Positions 32,809 to 35,530 of a DNA stretch of 40,237 bases are shown here, piece after piece (the stretch's first letter is position 1; each line of letters opens with the position of its first letter). The translations under genes were made by a program, and so were the position numbers. Below the pieces are notes generated by a model. The model was not told the origin of the DNA and ran no database searches. It saw only the letters and a list, made by a program, of their open reading frames with translations. The stretch lies in sequence record MT375042.1; one strand, 5' to 3'. This stretch comes from Acinetobacter phage vB_AbaP_Alexa.

Positions 32809-32832
32809 GAACCCGCCTAGTGCGGGTTTTTT
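32809..32832 (+). terminator. Intrinsic terminator (GAACCCGC-loop-GCGGGTT followed by T6)
   Basis: A GC stem, a 5-nt loop and TTTTTT, right after the last island ORF. Confidence 0.65.
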
Positions 32833-32943: not shown

Positions 32944-32995
32944 TGGTACAGCCGAAGGGATTCGAACCCCTGACCCCCAGATCCACAATCGGGTA
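32944..32995 (-). other. 3' half of a tRNA gene (T-arm, acceptor 3' strand and CCA) with no 5' half: attP-like core
   Basis: The minus strand reads ...GGGGTCAGGGGTTCGAATCCCTTCGGCTGTACCA, with a TTCGAAT T-loop, a 7-nt acceptor strand and CCA. No complementary 5' acceptor strand (ACAGCCG) was seen in the ~65 bp of minus-strand upstream sequence checked (plus 33000-33060). Confidence 0.6.
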
Positions 32996-33601: not shown

Positions 33602-34795
33602 ATGCTGACAGACGCACAAATCCGCACGGCTATAAAATCGGTCGTCAATGAAACAGTCTTGAACGATGGCGGCAACGGTCGCGGCACCGGGGCGCTTAAA
33701 TTGGTCATCCGTCGCCTATCCGATGGCGGAACGTCTGCCGTATGGTTCGCCCATTGGAAAAAGAATGGACAGCGCACCAAGAAAGCGATTGGCCGCTATC
33801 CGGACTTGAACGCGAAACAGGCACGCGCCGAATTTAATGCGAACCATAGCGGCCAGTCTGTAATTACGTTTAAACGTAATGAACGACCGACAATCGAAAA
33901 AATGTTCAATGGTTACATTGAATCAATGAGAGCCAAGAACCGCGCGTCCGCCGATGAAGTCGAACGCGTGCTTAAAAAGGCGGCAAAGGAGTTCGGCATA
34001 AATCGCCTACCTTCCGATATTTCACACGCTGACATTGTAAATTTCATAGGCGGCTATTACGACCGTGGTTATCGTGGCGCAGCCGACAAAGCACGCGCCT
34101 ATCTGTCCGCCGCGTTCGGCTGGGCCGTGAAGGCTGCGAACGACTACACACAAAAGACCCGTTACGACTGGGGCATCAAACATAACCCGGTGACGGACAT
34201 ACCGAAAGACACCGAAGCCAGCACGCTGCGCAACCAGACACTAACCCCGGACGAAATCCGCGACGTCTGGAAGTCTGAAAAATGGACCATAGAAGTTCAT
34301 GCATGCGTGCAATTGATTTTAGCGACCGGCCAGCGTGTCGAAGAATGTTTGCGGCTGCATGGTGACGAGTTGGACCTAGACGCCGCGTTATGGCACATGC
34401 CAGCGCATAAAACGAAAGGCCGAAGCCGTCCGCATACAATCCCCCTACCCGCTGTCATTATCCCTATTCTGCGCGAATTGGTGGCGCTACACGGCTATGG
34501 TCCATTATTCCCCGGTCGGACTGGTTCCAAGCAAAAGTATATCGGTCATCGTGCCGTCAATCGTGCGCTGAAAAAGAATGTACCCGAAGGCATCCAAGCA
34601 CGTGACTTGCGCCGTACATGGAAAAGCCGCGCTGGTGAAATTGGTATTCCCAAGGAAGTGCGCGACCTTATCCAGCAACACACGAACGGCGATACCGGGT
34701 CGAAGCATTACGACCGTGGCGACTATGTGCCAATGATGCGCGAAGCAATGAATAAATATGGTGATTGGTTATTGACGGTTATAAATAAAAAGTAA
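33602..34795 (+). CDS. int: Tyrosine integrase (P4-type, with an N-terminal DUF4102-like arm-binding domain)
   Basis: The N-terminus has GALKLVIRRLSDGGTSAVWFAHWK. The catalytic region has LATGQRVEE (Arg), HTIPLP, HRAVNR, RDLRRTWKS and HTNGDTGSKHYDRGDY (His...Tyr). Confidence 0.9.
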   Translation: MLTDAQIRTAIKSVVNETVLNDGGNGRGTGALKLVIRRLSDGGTSAVWFAHWKKNGQRTKKAIGRYPDLNAKQARAEFNANHSGQSVITFKRNERPTIEKMFNGYIESMRAKNRASADEVERVLKKAAKEFGINRLPSDISHADIVNFIGGYYDRGYRGAADKARAYLSAAFGWAVKAANDYTQKTRYDWGIKHNPVTDIPKDTEASTLRNQTLTPDEIRDVWKSEKWTIEVHACVQLILATGQRVEECLRLHGDELDLDAALWHMPAHKTKGRSRPHTIPLPAVIIPILRELVALHGYGPLFPGRTGSKQKYIGHRAVNRALKKNVPEGIQARDLRRTWKSRAGEIGIPKEVRDLIQQHTNGDTGSKHYDRGDYVPMMREAMNKYGDWLLTVINKK

Positions 34796-34799
34796 TATT

Positions 34800-35186
34800 A
34801 TTTCTTTATTGATCGAATCTGTGGGCGACACAGTATATTAACGGAGCTTATAGGTAGTTCATTTAGTTGGCTCTATACCATGCAACTATTCGCACGTTGC
34901 CGATCAACAGTGTAAACAAATGACAGCCGGGAAAGACCGGCAATTTTACCCATCTGACGAGCTTGTGAAATTCAAGCGAAACCGCAAGGTCATGGGACAG
35001 AGCGCCTAGTTACGAGGACTGCCAGCCGAAAGCGCTCGAAGGTTGGACGGCATAGCACGATATTGGTCGATTGTCCTTCAACGGGAATGAACCATAAAAG
35101 CCGCTATGGGCACAAGGGAAGTTGATGACAGCTTGGAAAGACAGCAATAAGCTTTGGATTGGGCATTCCCGGTCGGCTTAAAAGAG
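34800..35186 (+). ncRNA. Candidate structured non-coding RNA region (no ORF of 60 aa or more; several GC stems)
   Basis: Nested or adjacent stems: GCCGG-GAAAGA-CCGGC, CCCAT...ATGGG, GAGCGC...GCGCTC and GGAC...GTCC. The region ends at a strong terminator. Strand and existence are unverified. Confidence 0.25.
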
Positions 35187-35219
35187 AACCCGCAATGTTG
35201 TGAAACATGGCGGGTTTTG
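35187..35219 (+). terminator. Long hairpin (13-bp stem with one mismatch, GTGA tetraloop) followed by TTTTG
   Basis: AACCCGCAATGTT-GTGA-AACATGGCGGGTT followed by TTTT. Confidence 0.55.
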
Positions 35220-35322
35220 TTATATTGGGTATTCCTATTCTTTATGTAGTTTATCTAACCATAACAAAAGGAAATAACCATGAAAGACTGTTACGGCTTA
35301 GGCTGAATTTAGACCAAAAGAA

Positions 35323-35344
35323 AACCCGCTTAATGCGGGTTTTG
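35323..35344. terminator. Bidirectional terminator (CCCGC-TTAAT-GCGGG with T-runs on both strands)
   Basis: It sits at the point where int-side transcription and the leftward early operon (ending at 35330) converge. Confidence 0.55.
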
Positions 35345-35530
35345 TTCTTCTAGTTCTGATATTGCTATCGCTAGTTCAAATATAAGAAGTACGCCTATAA
35401 TTCCACCAAACACAAACGATTTAACACTAAGTCCGAGAAGTGACACAAATACGATTTGTTGGGAAATATAGAACAAAAAACCAAACCCCAAATACAGCGA
35501 ATTAAAACGAATTACTTTTAATATTTTCAT
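35330..35530 (-). CDS. Small membrane protein (2 predicted TM helices)
   Basis: A 66-aa hydrophobic ORF, the last gene of the leftward operon. Confidence 0.4.
   Translation of the reverse strand: MKILKVIRFNSLYLGFGFLFYISQQIVFVSLLGLSVKSFVFGGIIGVLLIFELAIAISELEEQNPH

Follow-up and report, generated by a model that had tools for sequence, protein, structure and literature searches.

A candidate hammerhead ribozyme joined to a conserved pseudoknotted RNA downstream of the integrase gene of Acinetobacter phage vB_AbaP_Alexa

The gene-free region downstream of int

The sequence record of Acinetobacter phage vB_AbaP_Alexa (MT375042.1), analyzed here over its whole stretch of 40,237 nucleotides (nt; hereafter the window), contains downstream of the integrase gene, int, a region that probably harbors a self-processing non-coding RNA (ncRNA) cassette, in which a hammerhead ribozyme defines the 5'-OH end of the RNA that follows it. 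The int gene encodes a protein of 397 amino acids (aa) comprising Phage_integrase and arm-binding domains, with no identical sequence on record, and terminates with TAA at 34793-34795; its convergent neighbor is an open reading frame (ORF) of 66 aa on the minus strand, at 35330-35530. Between the two, the ORF listing for 34796-35329 discloses zero ORFs of at least 60 aa, the largest reaching 45, 34, 31, and 48 aa, which agrees with the original prediction made for this DNA, where the lack of ORFs of that size between the int stop and the convergent operon had been noted in a stem-rich region proposed as a candidate ncRNA. No tRNA or tmRNA gene was found in the region downstream of int. G-U wobbles, the hammerhead core, and the terminator alike indicate the plus strand as the one that is read.

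The original prediction also listed a series of stems, all of which are present as letters, including (i) GCCGG-GAAAGA-CCGGC at 34926-34941; (ii) CCCAT 34949-34953 with ATGGG 34992-34996; (iii) CTTG-TGAAATT-CAAG at 34962-34976; (iv) GAGCGC 35000-35005 with GCGCTC 35032-35037; and (v) GGAC 35045-35048 with GTCC 35073-35076. The last of these is not supported as a stem, as homologs place the same bases in other, covarying helices. Moreover, the argument that the region carries more structure than a spacer needs fails in terms of fold energy: 34805-35225 displays z = -1.5, with 8 of 100 shuffles equally stable, and fold energy alone does not demonstrate an unusual structure of the whole region. 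The downstream RNA by itself (139 nt) shows z = +0.7, and the case therefore rests on the comparison with other phages. What does rise above chance is the fold of the hairpin and hammerhead together (z = -3.9; 0 of 200 shuffles), the hammerhead pattern and, above all, the conservation accompanied by compensatory changes.

Rfam 15 returned no family at gathering score in the whole window; in particular, neither the downstream RNA nor the upstream module M1 nor the hairpin arrays described below belong to a Rfam 15 family at that score. At lax E-values, the window region, four homologous loci, and the array of locus L006 yielded only chance-level terminator-like hits, tRNAs, and the hammerhead. 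Thus the Rfam search proposed with the original prediction produced no accepted family, but did return a sub-threshold hammerhead alignment, while the second proposed check, covariation in homologous phages, is borne out by the four helices named A to D below. The reading of the region as an ncRNA locus, not a plain spacer, is strongly supported by nucleotide conservation across otherwise unrelated Acinetobacter phages, covarying helices, unconserved reading frames, and a promoter-like site and terminator of its own. In this respect the original prediction stands; it had not recognized the hammerhead, stems I and II of which were among its listed stems, and this changes the picture to that of a predicted self-cleaving, multi-part transcript.

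The probable hammerhead and the pseudoknotted RNA

The segment 34949-34996 of the plus strand, reading CCCAU-CUGACGA-GCUUG[UGAAAUU]CAAGC-GAAA-CC[GCAA]GG-UC/AUGGG, is very probably a hammerhead ribozyme, self-cleaving as predicted, and its identity is well supported by the core, the stems, the Rfam HH9 alignment, and covariation. The predicted structure comprises (i) stem I, formed by CCCAU 34949-34953 and AUGGG 34992-34996; (ii) the core sequence CUGACGA 34954-34960; (iii) stem II, GCUUG-UGAAAUU-CAAGC 34961-34977; (iv) the hammerhead GAAA 34978-34981; and (v) stem III, A-C-C-[GCAA]-G-G-U 34981-34990, followed by C17 (C34991), with cleavage predicted between C34991 and A34992. The open stem is stem I, which makes this a type I hammerhead. 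Judged by the acceptance rules for core and core-adjacent pairs taken from PMC3088659, the invariant positions all carry the expected residues, namely C3 U4 G5 A6 N7 G8 A9 in CUGACGA, G12 A13 A14 in GAA 34978-34980, A15.1 at A34981, U16.1 at U34990, and H17 = C at C34991. The core-adjacent pairs 1.1-2.1, 10.1-11.1, and 15.1-16.1 are likewise standard, corresponding to A34992-U34953, G34961-C34977, and A34981-U34990, respectively.

The hammerhead pattern occurs once in the window and in 0 of 100 window shuffles. The core is identical across 18 aligned relatives, where only the free N7 varies, and its invariant bases are intact in 16/16 copies despite ~30% divergence elsewhere. The stems, on the other hand, change in a coordinated manner: stem I shows covariation in L031 (CCGAU/AUCGG), as does stem II in L018, L031 (CUAG/CUAG), L023, and L024, and both the length and the sequence of stem III vary in L005, L013, L023, L024, and L031. 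The Rfam model HH9 (Hammerhead_HH9 RF02275, clan CL00010) aligns to the segment at full length and in register with a sub-threshold score of 20.4 bits (E = 0.0035, 101-nt search), and the equivalent site gives a sub-threshold match of 21.8-25.5 bits in 5/5 homologs scanned. For the DMU1 and L004 copies, energy minimization predicts the hammerhead secondary structure itself or a fold no more than 0.4 kcal/mol more stable. There is one ribozyme per locus; a second hammerhead, which would release a unit-length or circular RNA, was not found.

Immediately after the predicted cut site begins a conserved downstream RNA of ~135 nt (34992-35125, plus strand), whose 5' start after cleavage would read 5'-OH-AUGGGACAG. 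The existence of this conserved structured RNA is well supported by comparison of the homologs, which span ~135-175 nt after the cut site and preserve four covarying helices. Helix A pairs 35000-35005 with 35032-35037, and helix B pairs 35020-35027 with 35041-35046 and 35048-35049, leaving A35047 bulged. The strands follow one another in the order A5', B5', A3', B3', so that helices A and B form a pseudoknot, with the conserved, single-stranded AGGACU located at 35015-35020. Helix C (35051-35056 with 35103-35108) and helix D (35064-35067 with 35091-35094) complete the set. Helix A is built from five different sequences, such as GAGCGC/GCGCUC, GCGCAC/GUGCGC, and GCGUAC/GUACGC, and helix B from seven, such as CCAGCC/GGUUGG, CCAAC/GUUGG, CUAGU/GCUAG, and CCGAAG/CUUCGG, the bulged A being constant throughout. 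The variants of helix C include CAUAGC/GCUAUG, CACGGU/ACCGUG, and CACAAC/GUUGUG, and those of helix D include UGGU/ACCA, UGAC/GUCA, UGGA/UCCA, and UGGC/GCCA.

In helix tables of 14 sequences, strand shuffling reached the observed pairing in 1, 13, 74, and 38 of 2000 trials for helices A, B, C, and D, respectively. Alignment A6 was produced with MAFFT, which aligned two classes of sequences imperfectly; even so, 92.3% of its cells are paired, compared with 82.4% in shuffled versions (0 of 500 as high as observed), and 19 of 25 pairs show changes on both sides. Conservation does not extend to reading frames: homologs differ in their frames and in the lengths of their insertions. A second pseudoknot probably connects the loop of helix D (UCAAC, 35078-35082) with the tail that precedes the next hairpin (GUUGA, 35121-35125). 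By eye, the two segments display matching changes, from UCAAC/GUUGA in the window to UCUGUU/AACAGA in L005, UCAGUUU/AAACUGA in L008, and UUAGUUU/AAACUAA in JeffCo; their register drifts slightly among sequences, the segments are A/U-rich, and a per-sequence shuffle test was not significant. A candidate stem inside the large helix-D loop was rejected, given that L006-type sequences are unable to form it.

BLAST against phage genomes places window positions 34947-35150 at ~74% identity to an unannotated stretch in the lytic siphoviruses DMU1, SH-Ab 15497, vB_AbaSI_2, and JeffCo. Pattern scans of viral, genome, and metagenome collections gathered 16 loci, all of them from Acinetobacter or its phages, and in 16/16 the hammerhead and the downstream RNA occur together and directly adjacent. 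When 174 kilobases (kb) were searched with a covariance model of the downstream RNA, every one of the 16 loci gave a single copy, the window copy scoring 141 bits, and no further copies turned up. Likewise, scanning for this RNA by itself did not bring up any copy that lacks the ribozyme. The genomic surroundings differ considerably. The cassette is located (i) after int in the window; (ii) after a helicase gene and directly before tRNA-Arg(CCU) in DMU1 and JeffCo; (iii) between the portal and the scaffold/major head genes in L004, L008, L010, L012, and L015; (iv) before the terminase gene in L018; and (v) near a plasmid-like ParA/recombinase set in L005. None of the other loci encodes a relative of the proteins that flank it in the window, no conserved protein partner was found among the cassette flanks, integrases 44-48% identical to the window int come without the cassette, and a plasmid search gave no match to it. 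The unrelated flanks and differing contexts point to a self-contained module that moves between phage backbones.

Stem I is preceded at a distance of a few bases by the end of a near-consensus promoter in DMU1, JeffCo, and L028, where the ribozyme can remove only its own leader. Locus L028 (74-240, minus strand; metagenome contig RRZT010523349.1, from a JeffCo-like phage) carries the same promoter and hammerhead, with the predicted cut 2 nt before the start of a tRNA-Met(CAU); this tRNA possesses a long variable arm, and its acceptor strand doubles as the stem I 3' strand. Read from the sequence, this would be a ribozyme-made trimming of a tRNA 5' leader. Two further type I hammerheads, L023 794-848 and L024 26-74 (minus strand), share stem I CCCAU/AUGGG, differ in stems II and III, and lie in the 5' untranslated region (UTR) just upstream of the ribosome-binding site of a protein gene, on unrelated metagenomic contigs. 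Other candidates returned by the pattern were rejected, either for lacking stem II or for lying within genes, including the Marinobacter-type loci L011, L014, L017, and L021 and the metagenome loci L016, L019, L020, and L025-L027. The Marinobacter-type element (L011 3640-3840, also L014, L017, and L021) fits the pattern (CTGACGAG…CGAAAC…GTCATGGGA) without a stem II and is not a hammerhead; it is flanked by repeated TGTAGGAAG units.

Putative promoter, M1 module, punctuation hairpins, and terminator

Upstream of the ribozyme, a sigma-70-like site that would act as a promoter lies at 34772-34801 (plus strand), comprising a -35 box TTGACG (34772-34777) within the end of int, an 18-nt spacer, and a -10 box TATTAT (34796-34801) immediately following the stop codon of int; the promoter scan scored 10/12 consensus matches, and transcription would be expected to start at ~34808. 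The -10 box and the sequence that follows are 95-97% identical to the starts of gene-free regions in lytic Acinetobacter phages such as AB1, RM_A1, and vB_AQ1, and in AB1 and AP22 a TGG before the TATTAT box makes it an extended -10.

The first module of the predicted transcript, M1 (34809-34907, plus strand), is expected to adopt a cloverleaf-shaped four-way junction comprising (i) a closing stem of 7 base pairs (bp), UUGAUCG/CGAUCAA, 34809-34815 with 34901-34907; (ii) a GNRA-capped first hairpin, CUGUG-GGCGA-CACAG, 34819-34833; (iii) a variable central arm; and (iv) a last hairpin, GCAAC-UAUUCGCAC-GUUGC, 34882-34900, that abuts the closing stem. This junction is the minimum-energy fold, with a z of only -1.3. 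The ends of M1 are conserved and its center varies by 13-60 nt (AP22, AB1, vB_AQ1); array-type relatives (L006 and others) retain the closing stem and the first hairpin through the compensatory UGAUUGA/UCAAUCA and CCACA/UGUGG. Positions 34796-34907 match a phage set separate from that of the cassette, the lytic AP22/AB1-type myoviruses, with up to 97% identity over the first 40 nt. In these lytic Obolenskvirus members, a gene-free region of 500-800 nt after the head genes (L029, AP22, 1490-1960; L030, AB1, 1490-1930) begins with the promoter and M1 of window 34796-34907 and ends with a T-arm-like hairpin and a terminator; it is annotated as empty or as small hypothetical proteins.

Between M1 and the hammerhead lies a punctuation hairpin (34920-34941, plus strand), in which AUGACA precedes GCCGG-GAAAGA-CCGGC; here, 5 bp form the stem and a purine-rich segment of 6 nt the loop. 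Its stem covaries freely among relatives (GCCGG, GCCUG, ACUUG, ACUCG, GCUAG, GUUCG/CGAGC), and the G-U wobbles pair only in plus-strand RNA. The hairpin is found 5' of the hammerhead in 11 of the 16 cassette loci; DMU1, JeffCo, and L005 lack it, and L015 and L031 are not tabulated or carry a GAACAGA loop. A single locus can contain as many as five of these hairpins, which also stand in front of other conserved modules. A degenerate second copy, AUGACA-GCUUG-GAAAGA-CAGC, follows the downstream RNA at 35125-35145 (plus strand), with a 3' arm one base short; it constitutes an 18-nt direct repeat of 34920-34937, 89% identical and 205 nt downstream. The equivalent second hairpin of homologs is intact, for instance ACUUG-GAAAGA-CAAGU in L004. 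The possibility that the hairpins represent sigma-70 promoters, suggested by the TTGACA-like UGACA, was rejected because no -10 box stands at the right spacing.

Gene-free arrays of RNA modules, each module placed after a UGACA-stem-GAAAGA-stem hairpin, extend over up to 1.5 kb, all on one strand, in L006 (1-1540), L004 (5340-6200), L008 (4990-5600), L012 (1450-2000), and L015 (4310-5200), between the portal and the scaffold/major head genes. Some of them terminate in a tRNA gene (tRNA-Cys plus terminator). A tRNA-like element is located at L006 1075-1148, L012 ~1900-1985, and L010 ~2075-2150, with a canonical T arm (GGTTCGAATCC), an acceptor-like stem, an encoded CCA, and an oversized 'anticodon' loop with UUCCCUCA, which is called by neither ARAGORN nor Rfam. 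Another conserved RNA-like module displays a long closing stem (…AAAGAGCGC…GCGCTCTTT…) and is found in L006 725-860, L009 310-430, and L001 (DMU1) 2810-2925, after a punctuation hairpin in arrays and after tRNA-Arg in DMU1.

The region ends with an intrinsic terminator (35187-35226, plus strand), AACCCGC-A-ATGTT GTGA AACAT-G-GCGGGTT plus TTTTGTTATATT, in which a GC-rich hairpin stands directly before a U-run. The hairpin is very stable (-20.5 kcal/mol, z = -5.4, 0 of 200 shuffles as stable), as the original prediction had anticipated; its stem, however, comprises 12 bp and one A/G mismatch instead of 13 perfect pairs, closed by a GUGA loop and followed by UUUUGUUAUAUU (a UUUUGUU run). A consensus scanner overlooked this terminator because of the mismatch. 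Three hairpins of the same family (AACCCGC-loop-GCGGGTTTT) occur in the window, at 32810-32830, 35187-35219, and 35321-35343, the last of which is symmetric and probably terminates the convergent early operon.

Proposed mechanism, alternatives, and related systems

The self-processing reading builds on the hammerhead consensus, the covarying helices, the strict co-occurrence of the two elements, and their mosaic distribution. According to this reading, one transcription unit of ~410 nt would run from ~34808 to ~35222, starting from the promoter at the int stop or entered by read-through from int, and ending at the 35187-35219 terminator. The type I hammerhead would fold co-transcriptionally and cut between C34991 and A34992, giving rise to (i) a 5' product containing M1, the GAAAGA hairpin, and the ribozyme, with a 2',3'-cyclic phosphate end; and (ii) a 3' product starting with 5'-OH-AUGGGACAG and comprising the compact, doubly pseudoknotted RNA, the hairpin, and the terminator. 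The ribozyme would then represent a built-in 5'-end maturation device or insulator, freeing the downstream RNA from the identity of the promoter or gene upstream. A context-independent 5' end would explain how the same cassette can reside behind int, behind a helicase gene, or in unrelated head-gene clusters, and the promoters abutting the ribozyme in DMU1, JeffCo, and L028, together with the tRNA fusion of L028, suggest that its job is to provide a fixed 5'-OH end and not to separate genes. Given the 5'-end-dependent RNA decay of proteobacteria, a 5'-OH end and a compact fold would be expected to prolong the life of the downstream RNA.

The shape of the downstream RNA, the lack of a gene after it in the window, L005, and L031, and the absence of a conserved neighboring protein make it most likely that it would act in trans, by shape, on a host protein or on a widely shared phage protein or factor. 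The suggestion, made with the original prediction, of an immunity or antisense regulator finds no support, as no complementary target was found for the downstream RNA and a compact pseudoknot suggests binding by shape rather than by base pairing. A more ambitious proposal can be put forward only tentatively: the 135-nt RNA may represent a new functional class of phage RNA that needs its hammerhead-made 5'-OH and that, with M1 and the other modules, would belong to an unrecognized, hairpin-punctuated array system exchanged among unrelated Acinetobacter phages. Such arrays could serve host takeover or anti-defense, with tRNA-like decoys and protein sponges as conceivable modes of action; alternatively, the RNA itself might be a new ribozyme.

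Several points weigh against the self-processing reading. The HH9 score of 20.4 bits falls short of the 52-bit cut-off and lies below every Rfam hammerhead threshold, a shortfall due to the short stem I and to the absence of the model's distal parts. A rival hairpin of the window copy, CUUGUG/CGCAAG, is 2.8 kcal/mol more stable than the hammerhead fold according to the nearest-neighbor model, a disadvantage mitigated by the order of synthesis, in that stem II emerges, and can fold, ahead of the competing sequence. Stem I is limited to 5 bp, no tertiary contact between stem I and loop II was found, and loop II (YGRRAYY) has no covarying partner in 15 sequences; at the magnesium levels of a cell, such minimal hammerheads cleave slowly. 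A substitute for the contact could be provided by the neighboring GAAAGA hairpin, which is, however, absent in DMU1, JeffCo, and L028. All members of the group come from Acinetobacter phages and are fairly close kin, with an effective sequence number of 2.2, and shared descent therefore inflates the covariation statistics. Controls with the partner strand slid by one to three columns, in which 20-42% of cells pair, argue against shared descent being the whole explanation. Finally, transcription, cleavage in the cell, and a trans-acting role are predictions derived from sequence.

Among the alternatives, one takes its model from lambda sib, an RNase III site downstream of int that integration separates from the gene. 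The hammerhead would accordingly be a 3'-UTR device regulating int, with read-through mRNA being cut, its terminator hairpin lost, and its stability altered by the state of the phage. The likeness is that of an RNA-processing site downstream of int in the same transcript: no terminator stands between the int stop and the ribozyme, so that int transcripts must enter it, and bacterial hammerheads often adjoin prophage integrase genes (PMC3088659). The explanation is nevertheless unlikely, considering that the same cassette is shared by lytic phages and by head-gene clusters that have no integrase in their vicinity, that the related integrases mentioned above come without it, that it has its own promoter-like site, and that the conserved downstream RNA would be left unexplained. 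The predicted cut is also autocatalytic, unlike that at sib, and integration would not part int from the ribozyme, given that the probable attP core is on the other side of int. This core is a 3' fragment of a tRNA/tmRNA-like gene at 32944-32990 (minus strand), flanked by the last of the late genes on one side and by ORF157-int on the other, and comprising a T arm GGGGTTCGAATCCCTT, an acceptor strand, and ACCA; there is no complete tRNA gene anywhere in the window. Regulation of int is possible as a side effect, but the lytic-phage and head-cluster copies and the probable attP position speak against it as the main function. The same fragment bears on the proposal that the conserved sequences act as DNA, as attP integrase arm sites, operators, or an origin, for which the location beside int and the 18-nt direct repeat at 34920 and 35125 could be invoked. 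Such a role is extremely improbable, and att arm sites as the sole content of the region, an outcome that the original prediction had recognized as refuting it, is likewise unlikely: the usual attP core, a tRNA/tmRNA 3'-end fragment, stands upstream of int, no family of arm-type repeats was found in 34796-35220, the G-U wobbles preserve pairing on one strand only, and the cassette occurs in lytic phages that lack an integrase.

An allosteric ribozyme, in which the downstream pseudoknotted RNA would be an aptamer or protein-binding sensor gating the hammerhead, would account for the constant adjacency of the two, with the stem I 3' strand AUGGG forming the beginning of the downstream RNA and a similar AUGGGC in its 3' part that could compete for CCCAU. 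However, the hammerhead is fully transcribed before the downstream RNA and folds without it, the same ribozyme appears in L028 to be paired with a tRNA instead, no Rfam riboswitch family matches even at lax thresholds, and in the window, L005, and L031 a terminator follows and not a gene that could be regulated, all of which renders gating distinctly unlikely. It is very improbable that the hammerhead is a decayed or inactive relic within leftover mosaic DNA and an int terminator; the sub-threshold Rfam score, the short stem I and the competing fold of the window copy, the unremarkable folding z-score of the whole region, and the degenerate second hairpin would fit such decay, whereas the invariant core has been kept in all 16 copies, with compensatory changes in the stems, and the downstream RNA retains its four helices through double changes. 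That the region encodes one or more small proteins is barely credible: stop-free stretches of 45-55 codons are present on both strands, and in some homologs a GAGGA box precedes an AUG by 10-11 nt, but that AUG is missing from the window and is followed by a stop after 8 codons in L005 and L006, the insertions of 9-39 nt are not multiples of three, the longest frame switches strand and frame, and the substitutions track base pairing, not codons.

If the cassette does process itself, it would offer a testable answer to a question that has accompanied the hammerheads beside prophage integrases since 2011, since in this group the ribozyme may serve to make the 5' end of a structured RNA or, in the case of one relative, a tRNA. 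A ribozyme-made 5' end would render an RNA gene portable between phages. Furthermore, these apparently undescribed RNAs (double pseudoknot, cloverleaf-like, punctuated arrays) belong to phages that infect Acinetobacter baumannii, which ranks as a priority pathogen and is a target of phage therapy efforts, and several lytic phages of the therapeutic type (DMU1-like siphoviruses, AP22/AB1-like myoviruses) carry parts of them in regions annotated as empty or 'hypothetical protein'. The open-access literature searched yielded no description of the cassette and the arrays in Acinetobacter phages, although such a negative result carries little weight. The hammerhead as such adds a member to a known ribozyme class; what appears to be new is (i) its fixed partnership with one particular, probably doubly pseudoknotted RNA, (ii) its location directly behind promoters of ncRNA and tRNA genes, and (iii) the hairpin-punctuated RNA arrays.

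The placement of the ribozyme follows the logic of RiboJ, an engineered hammerhead insulator used before mRNAs, which stands just after the promoter and removes the leader to leave a constant 5' end; here the arrangement is natural and the cargo a structured ncRNA. Hundreds of bacterial hammerheads have been reported, many of them near prophage integrase genes and with their function open (Perreault et al. 2011, PMC3088659). The present ribozyme shares with those of type I from bacteria and phages the core, three stems with stem I open, the GUC cleavage triplet, and the integrase-adjacent setting, but scores below the Rfam cut-offs, with a stem I of 5 bp and no evident loop-loop contact, is always joined to one structured RNA and not to flanking protein genes and, in several phages, stands directly behind a promoter, where it is predicted to trim an ncRNA instead of splitting an operon transcript. 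The theta (HDV-like) ribozymes found beside phage tRNA genes, which have been proposed to trim tRNA 3' trailers without host nucleases (Kienbeck et al. 2024, PMC10879173), likewise place a small self-cleaving ribozyme inside a phage ncRNA or tRNA unit, to be compared with the L028 hammerhead 2 nt before tRNA-Met. The two differ in that the present ribozyme is of the hammerhead class, acts on a 5' leader and not on a 3' trailer, has as cargo in the window an RNA that is not a tRNA, and is associated with Acinetobacter and not with gut Bacteroidota or Bacillota hosts. It thus appears to be the 5' counterpart of the theta ribozymes, and the L028 fusion would provide an example of a ribozyme-made tRNA 5' end in a phage for which no earlier description was found.

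The punctuation hairpin GCCGG-GAAAGA-CCGGC resembles lambda boxB (GCCCU-GAAAA-AGGGC), the part of the nut site bound by N protein, in its 5-bp stem of free sequence, its purine-rich GAAA-type loop, and its repetition in the transcript. The resemblance goes no further, as the punctuation loop has 6 nt instead of 5, the hairpins are confined to ncRNA arrays and not to the starts of early operons, and in the window neither a boxA nor an N-like gene was identified. To our knowledge, there is no resemblance to Acinetobacter I-F CRISPR repeats, and a CRISPR-repeat mimic was dropped on that account. The T4 'species 1 and 2' stable RNAs are comparable structured RNAs of a phage. GOLLD and ROOL are conserved structured ncRNAs of phages and prophages, often located beside tRNA genes and with their function open (PMC5737381); they show no sequence or model match to the downstream RNA, which is much smaller and predicted to be matured by its own ribozyme.

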